DNA of 64,000 bases from Candidatus Latescibacterota bacterium (GTDB lineage Bacteria; Latescibacterota; UBA2968; UBA8231). The stretch spans positions 2,944,001-3,008,000 of the forward strand of contig OZ241867.1 in assembly GCA_965203175.1 (NCBI GenBank), written 5' to 3'. Each line of letters begins with the position of its first letter. Within the stretch, counting starts at the first letter, position 1. Of the stretch, positions 14,213-35,138 are shown piece by piece. A program made the translations under genes and the position numbers. The notes beneath the pieces are model-generated. The model made no database searches. It was not told where the DNA came from and worked only from the letters and a program-made list of their open reading frames with translations.

Positions 14213-17200
14213 ATGACCAATCCCCACCTATACCATTTTATGAGATTCACATGCTGCTTTTGTGCGCTAGCCCTTTTTTGCGGAGGCGCGGCTATGGCGG
14301 AATTGCGCGTAAGCGAACAGACGCCACAGCGCCTGCGACTGGTCTGGGTTCCCGAGGGCCGAGAATTAGAACAGGGGCGTGGTGCCTTGATCGGCATCCC
14401 AATCGACGGTCAGGTTCGCTTGGAGTTGGTCGAAGCCCGCGTAGCGCGGACGGATCGCGCCGCTGAGGACGTCGCGCCCACACCTGGGCCGGCCTTCCTC
14501 GGCGAGAGCGGCTTTGCGCGCCGCCAGCGAGTTGTTCCGGTGGCGTTTGCCCCGCGCGTCGAAGCGGACGGGACGCGGACCTTATATGATCGCATCGTCG
14601 TTGACCTACACGTGACCGGCAGTGACGGCACCCGCGTTGCCGATCCTTGGGGCGAAGCATTCTACCGAGGGGTGCTCGCCAACCCCGAGCAAGCCAGAAA
14701 CTGGCGATTGCCACCTAAGCGGCGGCCGGCGCTCAAGGCCGCGTTGCAGGGAGGAACTTGGTTGCGGATCCTCGTCTCGGAAGAGGGGATGTACAGGATC
14801 TCGGGTGCCGACTTAGAGGCCGCCGGGGTGTCGCTCGGCGATGTCGATCCGGCGAGTTTGCGCCTGCACTACGGAGGCGGCAACGCCTTGCCCGTCAACG
14901 AGATAAGCCCGCCCCAAGCCATGCGAGAAGTGGGCTTGGTTGTAGAAGACGGAGGCGATGGCCGCTTGGATGCGGACGACTTCGTCTTGTTTTGGGCCGA
15001 GCCGGTCAGCCGCTGGGAATACGCGCCGGCTAGTCGCTCGTTTCAATATCGGCACAACCTCTACACGCGCGAGAACGCGTACTGGCTGGGTTTTGGCGGT
15101 GGGGTCGAGGGGCAGCGGGCCGAACAGAGGAGCGGTGCCTTAACCGCGGCCGACCCGCAGCAGCCCACGAGCTATCGGATGCGGGTTCACGAGGAAGCCG
15201 AGCAGTTCGTTCTCCACCAACTTTTTAGCATCAAGTCCGGCTATACTTGGTACTGGGAGGACTTTCGCGGCAATGCGCGCAATTTCCCGGTGCTAGTGCG
15301 GCAGGCCGTCTCCGAGCCGGTGGCTGTGCGCTTGGGTTTTATCGGGATACCTGAGACGCGGCCGCGTTTTTCAGTGCGCTGGAACGAAGCGACCATTGGA
15401 ACAGTGACTTTTACATTCCCAAAGCAACTGGGTGACCGGAGGTATGCTGCATCTGATACGCTGTGGGCGGCGCTAGGAGCGCAGGAGGGGCTGAACCACT
15501 TGGGGATCTTCCACTCTGGTAATCCGTGCCGCTTCGACTGGTACGAAGTAGAGTATAGCCGCGGCTTTGTCGCCGAGCGCGGCGAGTTGCTCTTCACCTA
15601 TCCGCTGACGGGCACCACGGAATTTCGCCTCGCTGGTTTTGCTGACGAACAGCCTCGCGTCTTCGAGGTCTCTGCAGGGTTGGCCGAGGTCGTGGACTTC
15701 GCGTACGACGCGCAAGATGGGACGGTAATTTTTCAGGATCAGCCCGGGGATGTGCCGCGTCAGTACGCAGTTGGCGGCCCAGCGACTTGGAAGCGACCCG
15801 TGCGGATCGAACTCGATTTGCCCGGCAATTTGACGACCGGGGCTTGGGGGGCCGATTGGGTGGCGATTTACCACCGCGATTTTCGCGCCGCGGCCGAGCG
15901 CTTGGCGCAATGGCGGGCTGCAGACGACCGCTTCGGTCGGCCCCTGCGGACGGCGGCCATCGACATACAAGACATCTACGACGAGTTTTCCGGCGGGATC
16001 TTGGACCCAACGGCGATCCGCAATTTTCTCGCCTATGCGGCCGAACACTGGGATCCCGTGCCCATGTTCGTGACCTTGATCGGCGACGGCTCGTACGACT
16101 ACAAAAATAATTCGTCCATCAGTCAGGGTAATTGGATCCCAGCTTTCCAAGACGGCGACAGCACGTACGACGAGTGGTACACGCGTGTGGTAGGGGGCGA
16201 TTTGTTTCCCGACATGGCCATTGGTCGGCTGACCGTGCAGACCGCAGCCGAAGCCGATGTAGTCGTCGACAAAATAATTGACTACGACCGCGCACCCGAA
16301 GTGGGGCCTTGGCAGAGCCGAATAGCACTGGTCTCGGACGATTTGCTCAATCGAGACCATCCAGACAAGGTCGAGTCGATGTTTATCCGCGACAGCGAGC
16401 GCATGGCCGAGCACATCCTGCCCAAGGACTTGGACTTGATCAAGCTTTATACCGGACAATTCCCCCTAGAGGGGCAGGAGAAACCGCGGGCACGGGAAGA
16501 GTTCATTCGGCTATTTAACAAAGGCTCGCTAAATTTGATCTATTTGGGGCATGGCACGTACAACCGCTTGTCCCATGAATGGATGTTCTTCCTTTCCCGC
16601 GATTTGGACAAGCTCAAAAACGGCGGTCGCTTGCCCTTGTTTTTCACGGCTGCAAGTCAGGTTGGAGTGTTCGACGATCCCGTGCGTATCTCCACGCCCG
16701 AGGCGCTGCTGCTGAAGGAAGATGGGGGCGTGATCGGCATGATTTGCGCGACCCGGATAGGATATCACCCCACCAATGTCCAGTTGGTCAACCAGTTCTA
16801 CTGGCAGATGTACCGCACCCAACGGGAGCACGTGCCGATTGGGTTGGCCCTCACCGAAGCCAAGCAATTGCTGTTGCCGCGGTATGACTCCAGAGGTGCC
16901 ACAACATTTCGCAACATTCAGCGCTACTCGCTCTTCGGCGATCCGGCGACGCGCTTGGCTGTGCCGCGCTTTCAGGTGCAGATCGATGTGGCCGATTCGC
17001 TCAGTGCCCTCGGCGAAGTGCCCATCGCCGGCCAAGTCCTTGACTCAGCCGGTGAACCAGCCACCGCCTACGAAGGCCAAGTGTGGTTGCAGGCATTTGA
17101 TTCGAGTGCGCAGAGTGACTTAGAGGGTTTTGCCTATGAGCAGACTGGCGCTCCGATTTTTCGCGGCCGCTTTCCAGTAGCCGAAGGCCGCTTCCGCGCT

Positions 17201-17962
17201 GCGTTTCGGGTTCCCAAAGATATTACCTACGGAGGAGAGAACGGCCGCATCAGCGCCTACGCTTGGAGCGATGACAGCCCGGCGGCCTTTGGCTCGGTGA
17301 GCAGTATAGTGCTGGCGGGCACGGCCCAAGGCGTGGAAGCAGACGTGGAAGGGCCGGAAATTTCCCTGCGCTTCGAGGGGGCCAAAGGCACCACGATTCC
17401 GCGGCAGACGGTGTTGTTGGCCTCGATTGCGGATCCCAGCGGCATCAACATCACTGGAGAGACCGGACACGAAATCGAGTTGGCTATCGACGGCGAACTG
17501 TTTACCTTGACGGAGCTTTACAGCGTGCAGGGCGGGGACTATCGGCAGGGGGTCATTGAATTTCCTCTGCCCGAATTGGAAACCGGCAAACGCGAAATCC
17601 GCCTGAAGGCTTGGGACAACTTCAACAATTCGTCGCGCACGACGATGACAGTGAATGTCGCGGATGACGGCGAAGGAACTGCGAGTCTTACCAACGTCCT
17701 GTTTTACCCGAATCCCATGCGCGAGAGCGGCTATTTCACGTATAATCTAGAAGACGACATGCGCGCTGTGCAGATAGAGGTCTTTTCGCTGGCCGGTCGG
17801 CTGATAGAACAGTTGGACGGACAGACGCGCGCTGGATACAACCAAGTACCTTGGACACCACCGGCGGGCTTGGCCAATGGTGCGTATATTTACCGAATAG
17901 AGGCCGAACGGGAAAGCGGTGCTGCGGTTGCGCACCGTGCCGTCTTGCAGGTCGCCAAGTGA
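14213..17962 (+). CDS. porU: T9SS sortase PorU-like protein (peptidase C25 fold plus CTD); Ser at the expected catalytic Cys
   Basis: Signal peptide; GMYRISG.DL, HNLYTRENAYWL, IYDEFSGG..DPTAIRNFL, LIGDGSYDYK, AIGRL, YLGHG, LFGDP, DPSGIN.TG..GHEI, LKAWDNFNNS, C-terminal YPNP..GAYIYRI. Start may be ATG 14240. Confidence 0.85.
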   Translation: MTNPHLYHFMRFTCCFCALALFCGGAAMAELRVSEQTPQRLRLVWVPEGRELEQGRGALIGIPIDGQVRLELVEARVARTDRAAEDVAPTPGPAFLGESGFARRQRVVPVAFAPRVEADGTRTLYDRIVVDLHVTGSDGTRVADPWGEAFYRGVLANPEQARNWRLPPKRRPALKAALQGGTWLRILVSEEGMYRISGADLEAAGVSLGDVDPASLRLHYGGGNALPVNEISPPQAMREVGLVVEDGGDGRLDADDFVLFWAEPVSRWEYAPASRSFQYRHNLYTRENAYWLGFGGGVEGQRAEQRSGALTAADPQQPTSYRMRVHEEAEQFVLHQLFSIKSGYTWYWEDFRGNARNFPVLVRQAVSEPVAVRLGFIGIPETRPRFSVRWNEATIGTVTFTFPKQLGDRRYAASDTLWAALGAQEGLNHLGIFHSGNPCRFDWYEVEYSRGFVAERGELLFTYPLTGTTEFRLAGFADEQPRVFEVSAGLAEVVDFAYDAQDGTVIFQDQPGDVPRQYAVGGPATWKRPVRIELDLPGNLTTGAWGADWVAIYHRDFRAAAERLAQWRAADDRFGRPLRTAAIDIQDIYDEFSGGILDPTAIRNFLAYAAEHWDPVPMFVTLIGDGSYDYKNNSSISQGNWIPAFQDGDSTYDEWYTRVVGGDLFPDMAIGRLTVQTAAEADVVVDKIIDYDRAPEVGPWQSRIALVSDDLLNRDHPDKVESMFIRDSERMAEHILPKDLDLIKLYTGQFPLEGQEKPRAREEFIRLFNKGSLNLIYLGHGTYNRLSHEWMFFLSRDLDKLKNGGRLPLFFTAASQVGVFDDPVRISTPEALLLKEDGGVIGMICATRIGYHPTNVQLVNQFYWQMYRTQREHVPIGLALTEAKQLLLPRYDSRGATTFRNIQRYSLFGDPATRLAVPRFQVQIDVADSLSALGEVPIAGQVLDSAGEPATAYEGQVWLQAFDSSAQSDLEGFAYEQTGAPIFRGRFPVAEGRFRAAFRVPKDITYGGENGRISAYAWSDDSPAAFGSVSSIVLAGTAQGVEADVEGPEISLRFEGAKGTTIPRQTVLLASIADPSGINITGETGHEIELAIDGELFTLTELYSVQGGDYRQGVIEFPLPELETGKREIRLKAWDNFNNSSRTTMTVNVADDGEGTASLTNVLFYPNPMRESGYFTYNLEDDMRAVQIEVFSLAGRLIEQLDGQTRAGYNQVPWTPPAGLANGAYIYRIEAERESGAAVAHRAVLQVAK

Positions 17963-18098
17963 GGCATTGTGAGAGGAGTGCTTTTGCATCAGTGAGATCG
18001 TCTTAGTACGCAGGAGGCATCATTTTTATATTTTATCCCGAGCTGAGGAGGACTCCGCTATGAGGAATCTGACGACCTTACTGATGGTCTGTCTTTGC
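17941..18098 (+). repeat. Copy 1 of a ~150-bp direct repeat (porU end, spacer, porV start)
   Basis: Aligns by eye to 21863-22009; first 23 nt identical (cgtcttgcaggtcgccaagtgag). Confidence 0.9.
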
Positions 18099-19109
18099 AT
18101 GGGTGTGTGGCCCACTAGGGTGCAGGCCACGCCCGAGAGCCGCGCAGGCGTGCTTTTTCTGTTGATCGAGCCAGGGGCCCGCGCCGTTGCCATGGGCGAA
18201 TCGTACGTGGCAGTGGCCGACGACGCCACGGCCGGCTACTTCAATCCGGCTTCCTTAGTCGGGCAGAGCAGAAAAAAGATGCACTTTACCCACAGCAAAT
18301 GGCTGCCTGGGCTGGCCGACGATTTGTCCTACGAGTTTTTGGCCTATTCTATGCCGATAGAAGGTGGAGGCATTGGCTTCAACGTCGCGTTAATGAACCT
18401 GGGCGAGCAGACTCGCACGGGAGAGCGCGGCGAAGTCCTAGGCACCTTCCGCAGTCATGAAGTGGCAGTGTCTGCAGCTTATGGGGCACAGATCGGTAAC
18501 AAAACGACCGCTGGCATCAGTTTGAAGTTCATCCGCAGCAGTTTGGCTCCTGTGGGAGCTGGCAGAGAGCGCGGCGAGGGCATAGGCAATAGCTTTGCCG
18601 CAGATTTGGGATTTTTGTGGAGGGCTACGCCTGATCTCAATATGGGCATAGCTTTGCGCAATTTGGGTCCCAAGATCGCGTATATCGACGCCAGCCAGGC
18701 CGATCCGCTGCCCCAGCACATCGTCGTTGGGGTGGCTTATGAGGTGATGGATACCCAGTACAACGACCTACTATTGTCCTGTGATCTATACAAGCCCTTG
18801 ATCGCCGATGGATCGTTTGTGAGCAACTTGGCCACGTCTTGGGCCGACGAGAGCTTGAGCAATGAATTTAAGGAGATGGATCTGCGCGTGGGCGGCGAGT
18901 ACCAGTACGGGCTTTCCGCGCGCGAGGACGAGGCCTTCATTGCATTGCGCTCCGGTATTTCGCTGGACAGAGATGGCGAACTAAATGTCCAGACCTTCGG
19001 CCTTGGGCTAAAGTACAACCGCATCCAGATCGACGTGGCTTATGTCATCGGCAATGATCAATCGCCGATGGATGACAATGTGCGGTATTCGATGAATCTC
19101 CTTTTTTAG
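18060..19109 (+). CDS. porV: PorV-family outer-membrane beta-barrel (T9SS shuttle)
   Basis: FLLIEPGARAVAMGE, DDATAGYFNPA, KWLPGLADDL, LKFIRSSL, NLGPKIAY..DPLP; C-terminal Phe; directly after porU. Confidence 0.85.
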   Translation: MRNLTTLLMVCLCMGVWPTRVQATPESRAGVLFLLIEPGARAVAMGESYVAVADDATAGYFNPASLVGQSRKKMHFTHSKWLPGLADDLSYEFLAYSMPIEGGGIGFNVALMNLGEQTRTGERGEVLGTFRSHEVAVSAAYGAQIGNKTTAGISLKFIRSSLAPVGAGRERGEGIGNSFAADLGFLWRATPDLNMGIALRNLGPKIAYIDASQADPLPQHIVVGVAYEVMDTQYNDLLLSCDLYKPLIADGSFVSNLATSWADESLSNEFKEMDLRVGGEYQYGLSAREDEAFIALRSGISLDRDGELNVQTFGLGLKYNRIQIDVAYVIGNDQSPMDDNVRYSMNLLF

Positions 19110-19127: not shown

Positions 19128-21854
19128 TTGTTCCTCTTAGGCGTCTGCTTCACGCTGTTGTTGTCGGCGACCACTGCGGCTGCGGCCGAGTGGCGAGTCT
19201 TGGCCTTGCGAGTCGATTTTCCGCGCGAGAATCCCGACGAGTTGACGACGACCGGCGTCGGGGCCTTTGATTTGCGCTCTGCGTCGGCGGCTGAAGATTA
19301 CGTGCTTCCCTACGACCTGCCGCCGCACGACCGCGCTTATTTCGAGCGGCATTTGACCGCGCTGGCGCGCTATTACGAGGTCGTTTCCACAGGTCGGGTG
19401 GCGATCTCCGGCGAGGTGTTCCCCCGCGCCGCACGGCAGGCGTACGCGCTTCCCCAATCCATGCTCCACTATGGCAATGGACGCACAACTGAGGAGATCG
19501 GCGCGAAGTGGATCGAACTGGTGCGCGATGCCCTTGACGCCGCCCAGGCCGATCCCGACGGCCCGCGCTTGGACGAATTCAACAGCTTCCTCGTGTTCCA
19601 CGCCGGGGTCGGCCATGAGACCGGCGAACTGAACGACATCCGCTCGGTCTTCCTCGACGAGAGCGATTTTGCGCGCTTTAACGGCGGGCCGCTGACTGTG
19701 GGCGACGCGGAGATCGATCAGGCGTGGATCCTGCCGGAGTCGCCCAGCCTCAATGGCCGGGCCGGTCTCAATGGTTTGCTGGCTAAGTTCTTTGGCCACC
19801 ACTTAGGCCTACCTGGGTTGTCCAATTTCGCCGATGGCCTGCCGGCCCTAGGAGGCTGGAGCCTAATGGACGTGGGGGCCAGCGCTTTGGGCTATGTGCG
19901 GACCGACAGCCTCGCGTGGGTACGCGGCTTTGCGCCGCCGCATCCCATGGCTTGGAGCAAGATGCAGCTAGGGTGGGTCGAGCCAGTGGTGGTGCGGCGC
20001 GATACCGTACTATCGCTGCTGGCGACTGATCGCAGCGGCGATCTCCCCAAGGCAGTGCGCATACCCATTGACGCGCGCGAATACTTCTTGCTGGAGAACA
20101 GGCAGCAGCGCGGTCAGCGCGGCGTTGTGGAGGACGAAGACGAGGATAAGGTGTGGATTGACCCCGATCAGGTCACCATAGAAGAGGGCGTGTGGGTAGC
20201 GATGGAGGAATACGACGCCTTTGTCCCGGGATCGGGGGTGCTGATATGGCACGTGGATGAGGGCGTAATGGCGCGCGCTGAGGATCCCAATGCCGCGAAC
20301 AATCAGCTCCACTGGAAGGGAATTGCCTTGGAAGAGGCCGACGGGTACCGCGACATTGGCGATCCGCGCCGTTCGTGGGAGTTGCAAGTCGATGGATGGC
20401 CAGACGACCCGTTCTTCGTCGGCGGACAAACGCTATTCGGCTCGGCGACTCAACCTGACTCACGCAGCAACCGGGAGTGGGAGACCGGTATTGAGATCGA
20501 AGTACTTTCCGCACCCGGCGATACCATGCAGGTGGCCATACGCTTTGGGCGCGCCCGGCCGGGCTGGCCGCGGGATTTGCCGGGTGACGGTCGGCTGCAA
20601 GCTGCGGATTTGGACGGCGACGGAATAGAAGAGTTGCTCTTTGAGGCTAGGAGTGGGGTCGGCTATGCGACCGCAGACGCTGTGGCGTCGTGGCGAGTAC
20701 AGGATGCGCGACTGCTGGCGGCTGGGGACGGCGACGATGATGGCCAGCCCGCGGTTTTTTTGCGGCGCGACGCAGAGATCAGCGCGTGGGATGCCGGAGC
20801 TGATCAACCGCTGTGGCGGCTCGCGCTAGACGAGGTCCCGTTGGACGCGCGTTTCAGCGCGGGTGCGGAGGCCGAGCTGTTACTCGTCGGAGCGGAACAG
20901 ACCTATGTGGTAGATGCCATAAGCGGCGAGTTAAAGGAGCAAAGGCCGCCGATAATGTCTTCGGCTGTGGGCGATTTGGACGGTGACGGCCAAGTCGAGT
21001 GGGTCTTCGCCATGGCCGACGGACAGGTCGAGATCGGCTCGCAGGCCGTTGAGTTGGGCGATTCGCTCGCTGCGCCTCCGGTCCTAGGCGATTTGGACGG
21101 CGATGGCTTGTTGGAAGTGGTTTTGCTCGCGCGCGGTGGAACGATACACGCCCTGCGAGCCGACGGATTGCGCCAAGCCGACTTTCCCGCTGCCCTGCCG
21201 AGCTTTGCCGCGGTCGGCGATCTCGTCTTCGAGCCGGTGCTTTGCGACGTGGATGCCGACGGCAAGCAGGAGATATTTGTCGCTGGCCACAGCGGAATTT
21301 TCGGTGTGGATGATGATGGGAGATTGTTGCCGGGCTTCCCCCTGCTGATGGCCGCTCCCCCAACGGGGTCGCCGGTGGTATTGGACTTAGACGGCGATGG
21401 CCGCTTGGCTTTAGCCGCCTTGGATGGCGCGGCCGTATATGCGTGGGATCTGCAGAGGGTGGCGGCGCAGTACGCTGGAGGGCCAGCCCATTGGCCGCAG
21501 GCGGGTGCCGATGCGGCTGGGTCGCGGACTGCGCTGGTGGCCGGTCGCCCCGTTGTAAAGCCCGAGGCGGCCTTGCTAGGCCGAGTCTATTGCTACCCCA
21601 ATCCAGTCGGCCCCGGTGAAGCGGCACATTTGCGCTTTGCGCTAAGCGCGGCCGGGCGCATCGAATTGGAGGTGTTCGATGCGTTGGGTGGTCGCGTTGA
21701 GCAACACCGCAGCAATGGTTTGGAAGCCGGTGAGCGCGAAATCACTTGGTCTGTGAAAGACTATGCCAGTGGCCTGTATCTATGCCGATTAATCGCGCAC
21801 GGCGACGACGGACGGCGGGGAGAAACTGTGGTCAAAATGGCGGTGAGTCAGTGA
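19128..21854 (+). CDS. M6/immune inhibitor A-like domain with degenerate Zn motif, FG-GAP repeats and T9SS CTD
   Basis: VLALRVDF, VFHAG.G.E, KFFGHHLGLP, WSLMD.G, WSKMQLGW, EYFLLENR, GVLIWHVDE; DLDGDG repeats; YPNP..SGLYLCRL. Confidence 0.7.
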   Translation: MFLLGVCFTLLLSATTAAAAEWRVLALRVDFPRENPDELTTTGVGAFDLRSASAAEDYVLPYDLPPHDRAYFERHLTALARYYEVVSTGRVAISGEVFPRAARQAYALPQSMLHYGNGRTTEEIGAKWIELVRDALDAAQADPDGPRLDEFNSFLVFHAGVGHETGELNDIRSVFLDESDFARFNGGPLTVGDAEIDQAWILPESPSLNGRAGLNGLLAKFFGHHLGLPGLSNFADGLPALGGWSLMDVGASALGYVRTDSLAWVRGFAPPHPMAWSKMQLGWVEPVVVRRDTVLSLLATDRSGDLPKAVRIPIDAREYFLLENRQQRGQRGVVEDEDEDKVWIDPDQVTIEEGVWVAMEEYDAFVPGSGVLIWHVDEGVMARAEDPNAANNQLHWKGIALEEADGYRDIGDPRRSWELQVDGWPDDPFFVGGQTLFGSATQPDSRSNREWETGIEIEVLSAPGDTMQVAIRFGRARPGWPRDLPGDGRLQAADLDGDGIEELLFEARSGVGYATADAVASWRVQDARLLAAGDGDDDGQPAVFLRRDAEISAWDAGADQPLWRLALDEVPLDARFSAGAEAELLLVGAEQTYVVDAISGELKEQRPPIMSSAVGDLDGDGQVEWVFAMADGQVEIGSQAVELGDSLAAPPVLGDLDGDGLLEVVLLARGGTIHALRADGLRQADFPAALPSFAAVGDLVFEPVLCDVDADGKQEIFVAGHSGIFGVDDDGRLLPGFPLLMAAPPTGSPVVLDLDGDGRLALAALDGAAVYAWDLQRVAAQYAGGPAHWPQAGADAAGSRTALVAGRPVVKPEAALLGRVYCYPNPVGPGEAAHLRFALSAAGRIELEVFDALGGRVEQHRSNGLEAGEREITWSVKDYASGLYLCRLIAHGDDGRRGETVVKMAVSQ

Positions 21855-21862
21855 GGGGTTGG

Positions 21863-22009
21863 CGTCTTGCAGGTCGCCAAGTGAGCATTGCGAGAGGAGT
21901 GCCTTTGCAGCAGTGAGATCGCCTTAGTACTGGAGGCATCATTGTATTGTGAGCTGAGGAGGACTCTTCGATGAGGAAACAGGCGACCTTGCTGATGGCC
22001 GGTCGTTGC
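21863..22009 (+). repeat. Copy 2 of the ~150-bp direct repeat
   Basis: Carries the RBS GAGGAGG and the first 13 codons of the 21971 gene (MRKQATLLMAGRC vs PorV MRNLTTLLMVCLC). Confidence 0.9.
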
Positions 22010-25000
22010 GCGTTTTGTCTGTTGCTCGGCTGGGCGAGCGCATCCCGCGCCCAAAATCACCCGGAACTGGCGTGGCAGGTGGTGGAGACCGAGCACTTTC
22101 GCATTTTTTACCACGAAGGACTGGAAGGGGCGGCGGCGCGGGCAGCGCGCATTGCCGAAGCTGCGTACGCGCCCCTTACCGAGCTGTATGGATACGCGCC
22201 CGACGGCCGCGTGCGGATCGTGCTCAAAGACCACGACGATTACGCCAATGGCGCGGCTTTTTTCTATCAAGACACCATTGAAATTTGGGCCACGTCGCTC
22301 GACCACGACTTTGACTTGCGCGGCAGTTCGGACTGGCTGCGCAACGTAATTACTCACGAGTTTGCCCATATCATTTCGCTAGGTGTTGCGCGCAAGGGCG
22401 TGCAGCGCGTCCCTGCGCTCTACTTGCAGTACTTTGGCTATCAGCGGGAGAAAAACCGGCCGGACATTCTCATTGGCTACCCGGATGTCATCGCTTCCTA
22501 TCCGGTGATGGGCACGGTGATGCCCATGTGGCTGGCCGAAGGCGCGGCCCAGTACGGGACTGCGACTACGGCTCACGACCGGTGGGATGCCAATCGCGAC
22601 ATGGTGCTCCGCTCCTTGGTGCTTGCAGACGAACAGCTATCCTTCGAGCAAATGGGCGTCTTTGGCAAGCAGGGCTTTGGCAACGAATACGTGTACGACC
22701 ACGGTTTTGCCTTGGTGCGCTATATTGCCGAGACGTACGGCGAAGAAAAAATCGTCGAACTGTACCGGGCCGCATCGCAATGGCATGCGCTCGCCATTGA
22801 CGGGGCGTGCAAAAAGATCCTGGGCAAGAACGCGGATAAGCTGTACGGCGAGTGGATCGAATCTTTGCGGCAGGGCTATCGGGCGCAGGTAGCGGCGTTG
22901 GGGCCGCTGCGCGAGGGCGAGCGGGTCGTGGATGTCGGCTTTTCCAATCTGCGGCCACGGCTGGCGCCCAATGGCGAAAAATTGGCGTATCTATCGACGC
23001 GCAAACGGCACCACGGTCCGCACGGCTTGATCGTGCGCGACCTCGCTACGGGCGAGGAAGAAGTCGCAGCCTTTCCGGCGGCGGCTTCGACTGTGGACTG
23101 GTCGCCGGACGGGCGCAAGCTGCTCTTTTCGCGCATCGACCGGGCGGACAAATACGGTTCGCGGCAGGCGGATATCTACGAGTGGAACTCCGCTGCGGCC
23201 GGCCCTAGTTTTTGGCGCAATATGCTGTGGTTCGTGCCGGCCATGGTCAGTGGCACGGCACCGGAGACGCCGCGCGTCAAGCGGCTGACGCGAGGGCTGC
23301 GCGCGCTGTACCCGACCTATTCGCCCGATGGCGAGTGGATCGTCTTCGTGCAAAACAAGGGCACCAGCAACAACTTGGCGATGATCCGGGCCGACGGCAC
23401 GGGCCTGCGCTATCTAACCCATTTCGCGGATGGCACCCAGCTCTACACGCCGCGCTTTTCGCCCGACGGACGCAAGCTGGCGTTTGCGATCTCGCGCGAG
23501 GGACAGCGCGACCTCGCCGTGGTGGAATTGGACGCGGACGTCGCTGGTGCAACACCTCTACTCGCTGAAGGGGCATTTGACCTCGCCATTGCCACGCCGG
23601 GTACGGATCGCGATCCAGCGTGGAGCGCGGACGGTACAGAACTCTTCTTTGCGTCGGATTTCAGCGGCATTTTCAATATCTATGCTCTAAACTTGGAAAC
23701 GCGCGCGCTGCGGCAACTAACCAACACCATCGGCGGCGCGTTTAACCCATCGGTCGGCCCAGAGGGCGAGGTCGTCTTTACGGCGTATGCGGCGTCTGGC
23801 TTTGAGATTCGCCGGTTGCACGACGAGGGGACGCCGGTTGCGGCTGAGGAAGCGTGGTTTTCTCAAGATGTGCCGCCAGACTGGCGCGGTACGCCAGTGC
23901 CCGCATTGCCGAGTGCGCCCCAGGCATATGGCATCGACTTCCTTAAAACCGGGATCCTGCCGAGGCTGTTTATGGACGAGGGGCATTTCAAGGCGGGTGC
24001 GTACCTCACTTCTGGCGACGTGCTCAATCGCCAGAGCGTATTAGCCGGGGGTGCCATTGCGCCGGATAACGCAGACCGCGATCTGTTCGCTATATACGAG
24101 TTCAAGGGCTTTCGCCCCACTTTCTTTTTAGAGGTATTCAACCAGCGTCGGCGCTCAGCCCGCGGCGATAGCTCGGAAGCGCGGGCGGGCATTGTCAATG
24201 CCGTCAACTTCAGCTTGAGTCAGCTCAATGTGGGGGTGCGCGGCAAATTGGGTCGCCACGGGGAGCTGACGGCCTCGGCTACGTATGACCGCTACGATGC
24301 CAGCGTCCAATGGGATGCTTTTGTCCCGCGCCGCGATGGCGGCCTCGGTTTTGAGCGCCAGCGACAAAAGCCCTTTGGCTATACCTATCTCAATGGTTTT
24401 GGGCTGGGGTTGACCTATCGGATGGAGCTGATTTCGCGGCGGCGGGACCGCGATATAAATCCTTTGGGCCGCCAGCTCTACGCGCGCTACGACCGGATGT
24501 TTAACTATTTCATCGACGGCTTTAACGAGCAGTCGTCCTTTATCGACGAGAATTACATCAAGCTGTTTTACAATCAGTTTACCGTCGATTGGAAAGAGTA
24601 CATTAGCATGCCCGGCAATACTCGCTTGGGCCTGCGGCTATACGGCGGCTGGATCGACAGCGAGGCGGTCGCCGACACGACGCGGGTACGCGGTTTCTTC
24701 GACTACCGCCTCGGCGGCCTCAATTTCATGAAGGGCTATACTTTTTACAGTATCGAGGGGCGCAAGGCCCTGATGGGCACGGCGATGCTGCGCTTCCCCC
24801 TGCTGCCGGATATGAGCCAGCGCGTTGCGCAGTTGTATTTCGACAAAGTCTATGGCGCAGTGTACACTAGCATGGGCAAGGCTTGGGACCGGAACATCGG
24901 CGAGTGGAACGAAAGGTATGGACGCGATGGACCGTTGCGGGATGTGGGGGGGCAGTTGCGCTTTGACTTGATTTCTTATTACAGCGTGCCGACGCGGGTG

Positions 25001-25087
25001 CAGCTGGATGTGGCGTATGGGATTGACGAGGTACAAGATAAGGGGCGGTGGAAGTCTTATTTTACCGTGTTGTTCGGTTATTTGTAG
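21971..25087 (+). CDS. Zn-metallopeptidase (gluzincin-like) + TolB/PD40 beta-propeller + Omp85/BamA-like barrel fusion
   Basis: W...ETEHFRIFY, HEFAH..WLAEG; WSPDG/YSPDG/FSPDG repeats; C-terminal alternating aromatic strands with YRLGG..FMKGY (Omp85 loop-6-like) ending FTVLFGYL. Confidence 0.7.
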   Translation: MRKQATLLMAGRCAFCLLLGWASASRAQNHPELAWQVVETEHFRIFYHEGLEGAAARAARIAEAAYAPLTELYGYAPDGRVRIVLKDHDDYANGAAFFYQDTIEIWATSLDHDFDLRGSSDWLRNVITHEFAHIISLGVARKGVQRVPALYLQYFGYQREKNRPDILIGYPDVIASYPVMGTVMPMWLAEGAAQYGTATTAHDRWDANRDMVLRSLVLADEQLSFEQMGVFGKQGFGNEYVYDHGFALVRYIAETYGEEKIVELYRAASQWHALAIDGACKKILGKNADKLYGEWIESLRQGYRAQVAALGPLREGERVVDVGFSNLRPRLAPNGEKLAYLSTRKRHHGPHGLIVRDLATGEEEVAAFPAAASTVDWSPDGRKLLFSRIDRADKYGSRQADIYEWNSAAAGPSFWRNMLWFVPAMVSGTAPETPRVKRLTRGLRALYPTYSPDGEWIVFVQNKGTSNNLAMIRADGTGLRYLTHFADGTQLYTPRFSPDGRKLAFAISREGQRDLAVVELDADVAGATPLLAEGAFDLAIATPGTDRDPAWSADGTELFFASDFSGIFNIYALNLETRALRQLTNTIGGAFNPSVGPEGEVVFTAYAASGFEIRRLHDEGTPVAAEEAWFSQDVPPDWRGTPVPALPSAPQAYGIDFLKTGILPRLFMDEGHFKAGAYLTSGDVLNRQSVLAGGAIAPDNADRDLFAIYEFKGFRPTFFLEVFNQRRRSARGDSSEARAGIVNAVNFSLSQLNVGVRGKLGRHGELTASATYDRYDASVQWDAFVPRRDGGLGFERQRQKPFGYTYLNGFGLGLTYRMELISRRRDRDINPLGRQLYARYDRMFNYFIDGFNEQSSFIDENYIKLFYNQFTVDWKEYISMPGNTRLGLRLYGGWIDSEAVADTTRVRGFFDYRLGGLNFMKGYTFYSIEGRKALMGTAMLRFPLLPDMSQRVAQLYFDKVYGAVYTSMGKAWDRNIGEWNERYGRDGPLRDVGGQLRFDLISYYSVPTRVQLDVAYGIDEVQDKGRWKSYFTVLFGYL

Positions 25088-27304: not shown

Positions 27305-27910
27305 ATGTGGCGCTGGATCGCGTTGATTTTGTTGTTGCCCGGCGTGGCTGAGGCCGGGACGTCTCAAGGGGCGTTTTGGCGCTCCTTGCTGTTGCCCGGT
27401 TGGGGGCAGAAATACGCCCGTGGTGGCGGCGGTGGTTTCTTGGCCGCTGAGCTGGCACTTTGGGGCGGCTATTGGGGTTTTGAGTGGCTGGGCCAAGTGC
27501 GCCGTGGTCAGTACCGGGCGCATGCGGCGGAACGCGCTGGTGCGCGGCCCGAGGGCAAGGACCGCGTCTACTTCGACGACTTGGGGTTTTACACGAGCCG
27601 GCTAGAGCACAACCAGTTCGCCCGCTACGAGGACGGCCCAGACGCCGAGCTCTATCCTGTGGACGCGGATTTCTTCTGGGAGTGGGATCGCGACGAGTCG
27701 CGCCAGCGCTACCGCGAGTTGCGCAATGCGAGCCAGCACGCGCACCGGCAGGCGCTCTATATGACGGGCTTGGTGGCCGTCAATCACATCGTGGCTGCCA
27801 TCCATGCGGCGCGGGTAGCTCGTGCAGATCAAGCTCAGCTTGGCTTTGCGCCCAAGGTAGCGGTGGGGCCTGGGGGAGCGGCTTTCTTCTTGGTGCGGCA
27901 TTTCTACTGA
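27305..27910 (+). CDS. Exported DUF5683-like protein, paralogue of the upstream gene
   Basis: Start MWRWIAL at 27305; RSLLLPGWGQKY, FLAAE..LWG, WEWD, NHIVAAIHA. Confidence 0.6.
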   Translation: MWRWIALILLLPGVAEAGTSQGAFWRSLLLPGWGQKYARGGGGGFLAAELALWGGYWGFEWLGQVRRGQYRAHAAERAGARPEGKDRVYFDDLGFYTSRLEHNQFARYEDGPDAELYPVDADFFWEWDRDESRQRYRELRNASQHAHRQALYMTGLVAVNHIVAAIHAARVARADQAQLGFAPKVAVGPGGAAFFLVRHFY

Positions 27911-29493
27911 TGGCCTGCTTTTTCCCGCGGATGGCCTTGGCCGCGTGGATGCTCTCGCTGCCGCTGACGGTTGCAGCCGAAGAGCGAATATGCGGGACGC
28001 GCTGGCTCGAGCAGCACCGCGCGTCTTTCCCCGCGCCAGCCCCCAAGGCAGTCGGCGCAAGTCAAGAGCTAAGCCCCATTGAGGTGGGGACTCAGCTCGC
28101 CTTTTACGTGCCGACCGAATTCGTACTCAAATCGGCCACTTGCCGCTACAAGGGGACGCACTGCTACATCTTCGTCGAAGAAAGTCAGTGGGACATCATC
28201 GCGGCCCAGCCAGATGTGGATAAGCTGGGTGCGCTTTTTGACGCGGCGACTCCGGCTGATTCCGAGCGCGGAGTATTTGAAATAGCGGTCGATGCCTTTG
28301 GCGAGCCTGCCGATGAGGACGGCGATCCCCGCATTTTCATTCTGATTTTGGACCTGCCCAGCAACATAGTCGGATTTTTCGATGGTGCGCTGTACGAGCG
28401 GGCGCAGCCCGAACTCCGACGCGATACGATTTACCTGGACGCGAACAAGCTGGCCTTTAGCGCCTATCTCGCCTACGCGACCTTAGCGCACGAATTCCAG
28501 CATCTAATTCATTGGGGCCGCGATTCAGACGAAGAGAGATGGATCGACGAAGGGCTTTCTGGGTACGCCGAGGAGCTAGTCGGTTTCCCCGAGGCCGATC
28601 CGAGCATGGTGCCGAGTTTTCTCGCGGATCCCAGTATCAATCTAACGCACTTTGTGTTTGATTCAGCAAATTACGGCAAGACCTATTTGTTTGCCTCGTT
28701 TTTGGCCGAGCGCTATGGCTCGGGGCTGATTCGCCAAATCGTCGCCGAGCCGCGCAACGGCATTTCGGGCATTGACGACGCGTTCAAGAACCAAAACTGG
28801 GTTGAGGATTACGCGGGTGCTTGGCGTTTGTGGATTGCGGCTAACTACGCGGGTGGGTACGAGGCCCTGCGCGGCCGCCGCGTCGCCGCAGTTGCAGCGC
28901 CTGATGTGCCTTTCGCAGAACTGGCCGGCGAGGTCGGCAGCCAATGGGGTGCAGCCAATGTAGTTATTCGCTCGGAGGGGGATGTAGTCGTTGATTTCGC
29001 TGGCGCGGCCGAAGGGGACTATGCTGCGTGGGTGTACGCCATGCGCGACCAGCGCGGCGAGCTTATAGCGATGGAACTTAGCGCGGACAACACAGGGCAG
29101 GTGCAGGTCGCGGATGTAGATAGCGCGGCGGTCATCGTCGGCAGGGCTTCGCCGACGGGTGGTGATTTTGTCCTCGCGGCTCGGTATTTTACGCCCACAG
29201 TCGTAGCGATGCAAATAGAGGAACGGACCGGGGCTAATGACTTGGCACCGGCTTATCCGAATCCGGCCAACAGCGCGGTGAATCTGCCCTTTCGCTTGGC
29301 AAGAGAAGCGGATGTCGAACTGGCGATATACAATGCCTTGGGCCAGCGCGCGACCCTTTTGGTGGCGGAGCGGCTCGCGGCCGGGGAGCACTTGGCGCGC
29401 TGGGGCGGTGAGCGCGCGGCTAGTGGGGCGTATTGGGCCGTGCTGAAGGTCGGTGGGGAAACGCGGACGCGCCGGTTGATGTTGGTCCGGTGA
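27910..29493 (+). CDS. Secreted Zn-metallopeptidase (M30-like) with T9SS CTD
   Basis: Signal peptide; D.DGDPRIFIL, TLAHEFQHLIH, WIDEGLS; C-terminal AYPNP..IYNALGQ..SGAY..RRLMLVR. Start 27910 or 27931. Confidence 0.75.
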   Translation: MACFFPRMALAAWMLSLPLTVAAEERICGTRWLEQHRASFPAPAPKAVGASQELSPIEVGTQLAFYVPTEFVLKSATCRYKGTHCYIFVEESQWDIIAAQPDVDKLGALFDAATPADSERGVFEIAVDAFGEPADEDGDPRIFILILDLPSNIVGFFDGALYERAQPELRRDTIYLDANKLAFSAYLAYATLAHEFQHLIHWGRDSDEERWIDEGLSGYAEELVGFPEADPSMVPSFLADPSINLTHFVFDSANYGKTYLFASFLAERYGSGLIRQIVAEPRNGISGIDDAFKNQNWVEDYAGAWRLWIAANYAGGYEALRGRRVAAVAAPDVPFAELAGEVGSQWGAANVVIRSEGDVVVDFAGAAEGDYAAWVYAMRDQRGELIAMELSADNTGQVQVADVDSAAVIVGRASPTGGDFVLAARYFTPTVVAMQIEERTGANDLAPAYPNPANSAVNLPFRLAREADVELAIYNALGQRATLLVAERLAAGEHLARWGGERAASGAYWAVLKVGGETRTRRLMLVR

Positions 29494-33325: not shown

Positions 33326-34252
33326 TTAGAGATAACCAAATTCCCGCAAATCGCGCTCTTTGTTGCGCCAGTCTGGGCGGACTTTTACCCACAGTTCTAC
33401 ATAGACAGGCTCGTCGAGTAGTTCCTCCAGAGCAGTGCGGGCTTGGCGTCCGATTGATCGCAGGCGCATTCCCTTCTTGCCGATGACGATGCCCTTTTGG
33501 CTTTCGCGCCCGATGTAGATAATGGCGCGAATGTAGGTCTTGTGGCCCGGGCGCTGGCGGAATTCCTCGATGTGGATGTTGATGGCGTAAGGTAGCTCGT
33601 CCTCAAGGTGCTCAAAAGCTACCTCGCGGATGCGTTCAGCGGCAAAAAACCGCTCGGGCTGTTCGGCCACCATATCGTCTGGATAGAGCTTGGGGCCGCA
33701 GGGTAGTTGGGCCTCTAGGCACGATAGCAGTTTGCCGAGTCCGTCGCCGCGCAAAGCTGAGACCGGGATCGGGCTTGCGATGCCGAACTCGTCGGCGATG
33801 CTTTTTTGCAGGGCGTCTAGCTGGGTGGGTTGTACTAGGTCGATCTTGTTGAGCACGGCCAAGACTGGTGCTCGCGCACGCTCTAGAAAGTGCTTCACCA
33901 ACGCGCTGCGGTCTTTGGGGCGGGAGGCGTCGAACAGCAGCAAGACTAGGTCGGCTTGGCGGGCGGCTTGGTCGATTTGGTGGGCCATGGTCTCGTGCAG
34001 CTTGTAGGAGGACTCTAACAGGCCAGGCGTGTCCAAGAAAATTATCTGGCTCTGTGGACGAGTGAGGATACCGAGGATGCGGCTGCGAGTCGTCTGCGGT
34101 TTGGCGGTGACGATGGAGAGCCGTTGGCCCAAGAAGGCGTTGAAGAGGGTGGATTTACCCGCGTTGGGACGACCGGCCAAGGCCACGTAGCCGACGCGAG
34201 GTTGCTCAGAAGCGGAAGCTGGCGGACAACTGGTAGGTTGCTTCGAGCGCAT
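33326..34252 (-). CDS. era: GTPase Era
   Basis: GRPNAGKST, KPQTTR, DTPG, NKID, KH domain SQKGIVIGKKG; start overlaps the upstream gene. Confidence 0.95.
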   Translation of the reverse strand: MRSKQPTSCPPASASEQPRVGYVALAGRPNAGKSTLFNAFLGQRLSIVTAKPQTTRSRILGILTRPQSQIIFLDTPGLLESSYKLHETMAHQIDQAARQADLVLLLFDASRPKDRSALVKHFLERARAPVLAVLNKIDLVQPTQLDALQKSIADEFGIASPIPVSALRGDGLGKLLSCLEAQLPCGPKLYPDDMVAEQPERFFAAERIREVAFEHLEDELPYAINIHIEEFRQRPGHKTYIRAIIYIGRESQKGIVIGKKGMRLRSIGRQARTALEELLDEPVYVELWVKVRPDWRNKERDLREFGYL

Positions 34253-35138
34253 CGTGCTGCAAATAGGCGAGGTCGAGGTCGAGGCTGCGGTGGGGGGTAA
34301 GCCCTAGCCCAAAGGCTTGGCGGCCTTCCTCCAATCCAGCCCGCAAGGCGATGTAGCGATGGCGGTATTCTAGGCCGGCGTTGAGCGGGACGTCATCGGT
34401 TGCAGTGGATGCATCGCCGCCGGAGCGGGTGGCTAGGAGGGCGGTGGTCTGGCCCTCGGCGATGGGTATGGCGTACGCTACGCCCAAGAGCAGCGAAGGT
34501 TGGATGCGGTCGCTGCTGTCTGTATTCCAGACGATGGGCGTGGTGGTTGCGTCGCGCACGTTAGCTGCCAACGCGATTTGATGGCTCAATTGATAGCGCA
34601 CGCCTAGGTCGAGGCCAAAGCCGTAGGCGTTGATGGAGGCGACTTGGCGATAAATGGCCTTGGCGCTTAGCCCGAGGGATAAGCGCGCACCGAGCCGGCG
34701 ACTGCCCGACAGATACAGCGCGTAATCCGCGCTTTGTTCGGTCGAGGCGATGAGCGGACGGTTGCCAGTGCTGGGGGGCTGTAGAGGATCCGGGAGTTCG
34801 GTAAAGTGGATGTCGTCAATGCCCATGCGGACCAAGCTCAGGGCCATACCGTGCAAAAGGCGACCTGGCCGGGCAATGGCGACAAAATCGCGCTGGATGA
34901 GGCCGGAGAAGTGTTCGGAATGCGTCAGGTGAACTTGGCGACTGCTGAGGGCGGATAGACCGGCTGCATTCCAATAGCCCGCGGTGGCGTCGTCTGCGAG
35001 GGCTACATAAGCACTGCCCAAGGCCACAGAGCGGGCACCCGCGCCCAAGTCGAGGAACTCGCCGGCGTAGCGCGAGGCGGCGTGTACAGCCCCAGTCAGC
35101 AACAGGGCTAATGCAAGCGGAAGAAGACTCTTGGGCAT
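34206..35138 (-). CDS. PorV/PorQ-family outer-membrane protein (second copy)
   Basis: Signal peptide; FLDLGAGARSVALG.AYVA.ADDATAGYWN.AGL; GFGLDLG; C-terminal SFRF. Confidence 0.75.
   Translation of the reverse strand: MPKSLLPLALALLLTGAVHAASRYAGEFLDLGAGARSVALGSAYVALADDATAGYWNAAGLSALSSRQVHLTHSEHFSGLIQRDFVAIARPGRLLHGMALSLVRMGIDDIHFTELPDPLQPPSTGNRPLIASTEQSADYALYLSGSRRLGARLSLGLSAKAIYRQVASINAYGFGLDLGVRYQLSHQIALAANVRDATTTPIVWNTDSSDRIQPSLLLGVAYAIPIAEGQTTALLATRSGGDASTATDDVPLNAGLEYRHRYIALRAGLEEGRQAFGLGLTPHRSLDLDLAYLQHDALEATYQLSASFRF

Follow-up and report, generated by a model that had tools for sequence, protein, structure and literature searches.

To our knowledge, PorU is the only sortase-like enzyme known from Gram-negative bacteria. 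In Porphyromonas gingivalis it is described as a cell-surface Cys/His peptidase belonging to the system for type IX secretion (T9SS), by which the C-terminal sorting domain (CTD) of cargo proteins is cleaved off, the cargo is held as a thioester and is then transferred to an amine of anionic lipopolysaccharide (A-LPS) or to free amines (PMC10202324, PMC4560394, PMC5445135). Throughout the PorU work cited here, catalysis is assumed to rest on a Cys/His dyad and to pass through a thioester (PMC10202324, PMC4560394), and an arginine conserved in PorU and not found in gingipains, Arg722, which lies 32 residues past the cysteine, has been reported to resemble the arginine of sortases (Gorasia 2015). 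Here we analyzed a porU gene from Candidatus Latescibacterota bacterium (GenBank assembly GCA_965203175.1), contained in a 64,000-nucleotide stretch of contig OZ241867.1 (forward-strand positions 2,944,001 to 3,008,000; hereafter the window, in which position 1 is the first letter). The encoded protein carries a serine residue, Ser815, in the position that the catalytic cysteine occupies in all relatives studied so far, and comparison with related genomes indicates that a whole family of uncultured, sponge-associated Latescibacterota runs a cargo-rich T9SS on such a PorU. A literature search by title and abstract, with supplements outside its reach, found no earlier description of either a natural serine PorU or a T9SS of Latescibacteria.

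Natural replacements of a catalytic cysteine by serine have been reported for other proteins. MCA4 of Trypanosoma brucei, a eukaryotic member of family C14 and a paralogue of the active MCA2, MCA3, and MCA5, keeps the histidine and has serine in place of the cysteine; it was measured to be inactive and is yet essential for virulence, while its S219C variant shows weak activity (Proto 2011). According to the same source, no protease with the caspase fold was known to use serine as its nucleophile. SERA5 and the pseudo-orthocaspases are likewise Ser-for-Cys cases that are read as non-enzymatic in the sources consulted. The pseudo-orthocaspases are prokaryotic (cyanobacterial) caspase-fold proteins in which serine occupies the cysteine position and the histidine has been lost to tyrosine, unlike the serine-type PorU described below, in which the histidine is invariant. 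Compared with MCA4, the PorU of the window, which is known here from its sequence alone, is the sole member of family C25 in its genome, and its serine is fixed across a bacterial family.

A PorU orthologue with serine in the nucleophile position

The gene (P0001) extends over 14213..17962 on the forward strand and is open for all 1249 codons, in agreement with the intact reading frame noted in an earlier reading that was made from the letters of the window and a list of its open reading frames (ORFs), hereafter the sequence-only reading. The same reading had called the product PorU-like, and this identification was borne out by the NCBIfam model NF033707 (T9SS_sortase PorU), which matched residues 178-1235 with 632.1 bits (cut-off 420). 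P. gingivalis PorU (6za2) was the sole sequence of the Protein Data Bank matched by phmmer (E 5.9e-57), and the cut-off of the PorU2 model (NF052324) was not reached by the protein (143.5 bits versus 450). In the NCBI records its relatives are named either "type IX secretion system sortase PorU" or "C25 family cysteine peptidase". The catalytic domain, a gingipain-like, caspase-fold Peptidase C25 domain (Pfam PF01364, E 1.1e-75), covers residues 551-915 (15863..16957, + strand). With P. gingivalis PorU the protein shares the N-terminal domains, the C25 domain, the C-terminal domains, a CTD of its own, the histidine of the GHG motif, an arginine equivalent to Arg722 (Arg848), and an adjacent porV gene; sequence, architecture, and gene order all mark it as an orthologue of PorU. 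It differs from the P. gingivalis protein in that (i) Ser815 replaces Cys690, the surrounding motif being TAASQVGVFDD instead of TATCDFANYD, (ii) its host belongs to the Latescibacterota and not to the Bacteroidota, and (iii) a gene for an M6-like inactivated protease follows porV.

The claim that had drawn attention to this gene was that an intact His motif is followed by serine at the place of the catalytic cysteine, and both halves of it held. The codon 16550..16552 (+) is CAT and encodes His780, the catalytic histidine of the GHG motif (IYLGHGT), whereas 16655..16657 (+) reads AGT and encodes Ser815 of the motif TAASQVGVFDD, 35 residues C-terminal of His780 (sequence context LPLFFTAASQVGVFDD). 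In the phmmer alignment to 6za2, the segment PIWITATCDFANYD of P. gingivalis PorU faces PLFFTAASQVGVFD, and Ser815 falls in the column of Cys690. An alignment to RgpB (1cvr), made with a profile that was built from 76 family members and that scored P. gingivalis PorU with 655 bits and RgpB with 93 bits, placed His211 and Cys244 of RgpB in the columns of the GHG histidine and of the nucleophile, respectively. The cysteine nucleophile by which MEROPS defines the cysteine peptidases of family C25 (clan CD) is thus absent from the protein, which has Ser815 instead, and we find it most fitting to describe the protein as a new PorU variant that is lineage-wide.

The catalytic domain was also modeled using AlphaFold2 (residues 541-935; pLDDT 94.2, pTM 0.93). 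In the model, His780 and Ser815 each stand directly after the end of a β-strand, in the manner of the caspase fold. The top Foldseek matches of the model were RgpB (1cvr; TM 0.74, E 6.4e-20), Kgp (TM 0.67-0.68), and PorU, with separases and CHAT proteases among the lower-ranked ones. The domain is accordingly modeled as a caspase-hemoglobinase fold and, judging from model and alignments, this fold is predicted to be kept while the canonical nucleophile is replaced, as in clan CD pseudopeptidases of the MCA4 type. Though the gingipains RgpB and Kgp (1cvr, 4ief, 4rbm) are its best structural matches and the columns of His211 and Cys244 align, they are only about 15-19% identical to the PorU of the window, have cysteine, lack the PorU arginine, and are cargo proteases and not part of the secretion machinery.

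Serine 815 is genuine and fixed among relatives

Since AGT differs from TGT by one base, we considered whether the serine codon might stem from an error in sequencing or assembly, or from a pseudogene in decay. The base call at 16655 was upheld by data from two further studies: a contig of run X16 (record 4) showed 0 differences over 16601-16743 and a contig of run X17 (record 11) showed 0 differences over 16592-16773, though contigs can hide rare variants, and no variant at 16655-16657 was present among the differences listed. The runs that hold the sequence carry sponge or marine metagenome labels.

The 24 genomes that were compared from elsewhere in the genus likewise all have serine (18 AGT, 6 AGC); their orthologues are 67-95% identical to the protein of the window, and among them the motif TAASQ[VI]GVFDD is invariant. 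Histidine and serine occurred together in 121/121 sequences, i.e., the query and its 120 listed homologues with at least 59% identity (the best 120 of 1106). Among 80 loci from species-representative genomes, 79 encode serine (44 AGC, 35 AGT) and one cysteine (TGC), while the histidine is present in 80/80, and in the catalytic domains of the serine clade defined below, the nucleophile column holds serine in 129/129. The other residues that are a single base away from an AGY codon (Asn, Thr, Ile, Gly, Arg) were never found in this column in any set examined. TGT or TGC in close relatives, the finding that by the sequence-only reading would have spoken against its claim, was thus limited to one nested paralogue (L080), and the expected conservation of serine across related genomes was seen in the genus, in the listed homologues, and at 79 of the 80 loci.

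A further expectation, that a mixture of AGY and TCN codons would point to selection on serine, found no counterpart in the data: there were 0 TCN codons among the 79 serine loci and the 26 serine rows of the comparison that covered the genus, all of them being AGY. This is what one would expect if every path from AGY to TCN goes via a residue other than serine, so the codon comparison neither helps nor hurts the case.

The ratio of nonsynonymous to synonymous substitution rates (dN/dS) against six orthologues of the genus was 0.15-0.19 when the whole gene was taken and 0.17-0.22 when the C25 domain was taken by itself. With an intact ORF, identical independent contigs, serine fixed in about 100 genomes, and a dN/dS of about 0.2, we regard an error or a pseudogene as having next to no probability. 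A sequencing error in particular was rejected on the basis of the comparative fixation and the matching contigs of other studies. Ser815 is clearly biological and not an error.

Taxonomic spread and history of the Cys-to-Ser change

In a wider search against representatives of 50%-identity clusters, both catalytic columns could be read in 145 of the best 150 of 13,842 matches. Serine occurred in 13, cysteine in 129, and an apparent "T" in 3 of them; the last resulted from a slip of one column in the alignment, as the sequence reads AATCDW. The 13 serine rows were the closest matches, the most distant of them having about 42% identity in the stretch that was compared.

Within the phylum, 168 genomes were surveyed. 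All 75 other genomes of the window's family gave a match, with at least 53% identity except for two incomplete genomes that contained solely a long paralogue (see below). From other families, 20 loci were retrieved that represent ten families: 19 of them, from nine families, encode cysteine (14 TGC, 5 TGT), and the remaining one, from a second small family, encodes serine (AGC). In the genomes searched, serine-type PorU spans at least 22 genera of the window's family. As far as these sequences indicate, the serine form within the phylum is that of one family plus one small family.

When 84 catalytic domains were placed on a maximum-likelihood tree (LG+G4, quick search), which omits 32 cysteine-type representatives from lower in the match list, all 35 serine rows and two cysteine rows (P0131 and L080) fell in one clade of 37 rows (SH-aLRT 99). 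P0131 belongs to the basal polytomy of this clade, whereas L080 is deeply nested as the sister (support 99) of L081, a normal serine copy with the gene cassette described below, from the same metagenome-assembled genome (MAG). The ORF of L080 (628-5091) is intact and has cysteine (TGC) in the motif TAACQVGAFDD, with no porV or M6-like neighbour. Since it keeps all the remaining residues of the serine clade (A814, Q816, P829, G850, V874, S906, and E654), L080 is taken as a point reversion (AGC to TGC). The simplest history consistent with the tree would comprise a single change from TGY to AGY close to where the clade begins, and one reversal.

Several MAGs of the window's family were observed to hold two or three serine-type paralogues (L067/L088/L102, L073/L091/L094, L093/L095/L100, L078/L099, and L103/L105). 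In these multi-paralogue MAGs, only one copy per genome has porV and the M6-like gene as its neighbours.

State of the active site

Conservation of at least 90% in the serine clade as well as in the cysteine clade was seen at 37 positions of the catalytic domain, which include D709, D710, E729, G779, H780, E789, N803, D821, E830, and R848. The acid pair Asp709-Asp710 (16337..16342, +) is located at the end of a β-strand and aligns with the region of RgpB Glu152; we infer that it orients His780. Arg848 (16754..16756, +), which belongs to the sequence ATR and was identified as the counterpart of P. gingivalis PorU Arg722 by alignment to STTR of the latter, lies 33 residues after Ser815. Twelve positions are specific to the serine clade, among them A814 and Q816, which flank Ser815. 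P829 and G850 accompany the serine and are missing from the basal cysteine relative P0131, which suggests a remodelling of the active site together with the switch; G850 stands two residues past Arg848.

The region around the nucleophile column is highly conserved, with a mean entropy over positions 808-823 of 0.37 bits in the serine clade versus 1.06 bits for the whole domain, the corresponding values for the cysteine clade being 1.87 and 2.19 bits. When the divergence of the C25 domain was expressed relative to the rest of the protein at equal divergence (MAFFT alignments, 28/118 serine and 40/98 cysteine full-length sequences), it amounted to 0.71-0.72 in the serine clade and 0.86-0.90 in the cysteine clade. 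Measured in this way, constraint on the catalytic domain appears tighter, not relaxed, in the serine clade. We regard the protein as the genuine PorU of the T9SS attachment complex in one Latescibacterota family, maintained there by selection.

Another residue might in principle serve as the nucleophile and leave Ser815 a structural role, as considered in the sequence-only reading for the cysteine of GMICATR. This residue, Cys845 (16745..16747, +), is the only cysteine of the catalytic domain and is situated 30 residues past Ser815, on the strand that follows in the sheet. In the serine clade, however, its column contains S 68, C 48, A 9, and G 4 (n = 129), and in the model it is found inside a strand (302-306 in model numbering) and not at the active-site end of it. 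No column holds cysteine in more than 40% of the serine clade, which therefore has no conserved cysteine in the catalytic domain. With cysteine in merely 48/129 sequences, Cys845 was rejected as a hidden nucleophile, and the idea that it or another residue takes over from Ser815 seems very improbable.

Genome-wide T9SS setting

The genome of the window is a single contig of 6.58 Mb, 93% complete by markers. It gave one match to PF01364 (C25), and neither a second C25 gene nor a PorU2 was found in it, as NF052324 matched the same porU only, below its cut-off. On the other hand, the model of type A CTDs gave 103 matches at E ≤ 0.001, the SprA translocon was found (618 bits summed), and at least six barrels of the PorV/PorQ family scored over the cut-off. 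For GldK, there were sub-threshold domain matches only. GldL and GldM were not found in this genome with the TIGR models, but control genomes were unmatched too, so this does not show that the PorKLMN motor is absent.

Elsewhere in the class, a long PorU-related C25 protein (about 1800-1950 residues) occurs that retains both the histidine and the cysteine (MSCLNG) and scores below the PorU and PorU2 cut-offs. Like the PorU of the window, it has PorU-like N-terminal domains and a CTD, and the C25 domains are 31-36% identical; unlike it, the long protein has about 600 additional residues and keeps the cysteine. In three other families of the class, it is the only C25 protein found (L027-L031). 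In many genomes of the window's own family outside its genus, the long cysteine paralogue coexists with serine-type PorU, whereas it was not found in the genome of the window, and 19 of the 24 other genomes searched in the genus have no cysteine-bearing C25 gene.

Catalytic or non-catalytic serine-type PorU

The sequence-only reading had left two options, either a catalytically dead scaffold that leaves CTDs uncleaved or a serine-nucleophile transpeptidase with a different anchoring chemistry. This either/or stands, although none of our results lends support to the different anchoring chemistry. That Ser815 and His780 work as an enzyme is the reading we favour, at about even odds. Under it, Ser815 would be the nucleophile and His780 its activator; Asp709/Asp710 would hold the histidine, and Arg848 would lie alongside. 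The acyl-enzyme would be an oxygen ester and not a thioester, and the CTDs of about 100 cargo proteins would be removed by the serine-type PorU.

Several lines of evidence speak in favour of a working enzyme: (i) over a deep radiation, the nucleophile column contains only serine or, once, cysteine; (ii) the histidine, the acid pair, and the arginine are invariant; (iii) the constraint on the catalytic domain seems to be tighter; (iv) the switch is accompanied by substitutions next to catalytic elements; and (v) no other C25 enzyme is present in the genome of the window, with its roughly 100 cargo proteins, or in 19 of the 24 other genomes searched in the genus. Moreover, serine and cysteine look interchangeable at position 815, because L080 reverted with all other residues of the serine clade kept.

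Other observations weigh against catalysis. The serine-clade-specific positions include no new acidic or basic residue that would obviously be able to activate a serine. The histidine of clan CD is regarded as chiefly a general acid, a role that would be better matched to a thiol of low pKa than to the hydroxyl of a serine, which it would be poorly placed to deprotonate. In the family of the window, many genomes outside its genus carry the long cysteine paralogue, the usual setting for a duplicate that becomes a pseudoenzyme, and the third gene of the operon encodes a protease homologue that is itself inactivated. Furthermore, MCA4, the only natural caspase-fold member with His and Ser that has been tested, is inactive (Proto 2011), and SERA5 and the pseudo-orthocaspases, as far as they are described in the sources consulted, point the same way.

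The rival reading is a conserved non-catalytic PorU, i.e., a pseudopeptidase that would keep the fold, the pocket, and its place on PorV, and that would bind CTD cargo without cutting it, in the manner of a naturally occurring Cys-to-Ser substrate trap or of a scaffold. MCA4 would provide the precedent (Proto 2011), with SERA5 and the pseudo-orthocaspases as similar cases; in addition, the long cysteine paralogue is found together with the serine form in many of the family's genomes, and the M6-like neighbour is also without its catalytic motif. The CTDs would then either stay in place, with the cargo on PorV-family barrels, or be cut by an unrelated protease or, in genomes that have it, by the long cysteine paralogue. 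As to the former, the genome encodes at least six PorV/PorQ-family barrels on which uncleaved cargo could be kept, and cargo with type B CTDs is reported to be retained on PorP-like barrels (PMC9143113). What speaks against a pseudopeptidase is the lack of a cysteine C25 gene in the genome of the window and in 19/24 other genomes of the genus, in view of about 100 CTD cargo matches in the former. The same holds for His780, the acid pair, and Arg848, which do not vary in a clade whose members are as little as about 43% identical, for the absence of drift to Ala, Gly, Thr, or Asn in the nucleophile column, and for a catalytic domain that is, in relative terms, more constrained than that of cysteine-type PorU. 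We rate the chances of a pseudopeptidase as fair but short of even.

Returning to a catalytic serine, the fullest form of this proposal is that in the PorU of this Latescibacterota family we have the first peptidase or transpeptidase from nature that uses a serine nucleophile on the caspase-hemoglobinase (clan CD) fold, that it serves about 100 T9SS cargo proteins per cell via an oxygen-ester acyl-enzyme, and that the Cys-to-Ser change together with P829 and G850 was adaptive, e.g., at the oxidising, aerobic surface of sponge or sea water, where an exposed thiol would be a liability. We put this forward tentatively, as something that may well be the case though we would not quite expect it.

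Either outcome would have consequences. With a catalytic serine, clan CD would become a clan of mixed nucleophiles, and the statement that no such protease is known (Proto 2011) would fall. If it is non-catalytic, CTD removal by PorU would be dispensable for a large T9SS secretome, and the attachment complex outside the Bacteroidota would have to be rethought. Natural matched controls are at hand in the cysteine-type PorU of the sister families and in the Ser-to-Cys revertant L080, which has a serine-type background.

Operon and neighbouring genes

The PorU of the window ends in its own type A CTD (residues 1165-1234; 17705..17914, +), which is a borderline case: TIGR04183 scored just over its cut-off (23.6 versus 23 bits), whereas Pfam PF18962 (Por_Secre_tail) scored 19.4, under its cut-off of 27. 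The next gene (18060..19109, +) encodes an outer-membrane barrel of the PorV family, as indicated by the PorV/PorQ model NF033709 (223.5 bits, cut-off 90); with the PorV equivalog model NF033710 it scored 153.9, below the cut-off of 250. A porV homologue was found downstream of porU in 56 of the 80 related loci.

The third gene (19128..21854, +) codes for a homologue of M6-like metalloproteases of 908 residues, with FG-GAP repeats and a CTD. It matched NF052323 ("T9SS-dependent M6-like inactivated metalloprotease") with 300.6 bits, below the cut-off of 600. The cassette of porU, porV, and the M6-like gene was present in 55/80 related loci, those without it being mostly extra paralogues or cut short, and the M6-like gene appears from this survey to be a fixed third member of the cassette. 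The propeller-like repeats and CTD of its product presumably recall the build of PorZ.

The M6-like neighbour was also considered as the true CTD peptidase. It reads KFFGH in place of HEXXH, and because it lacks the latter motif it cannot have this function; the candidate was rejected.

Directly after the M6-like gene, the window contains a gene (21971-25087, +) for a protein of 1038 residues with TolB-like PD40 β-propeller repeats and a weak match to Peptidase_MA_2. Two more genes were noticed 10-17 kb downstream of porU, one encoding a protein of 669 residues that ends in a type A CTD (27484-29493, +; 30.7 bits) and the other a second barrel of the PorV/PorQ family (34209-35063, -; 96.5 bits, cut-off 90).

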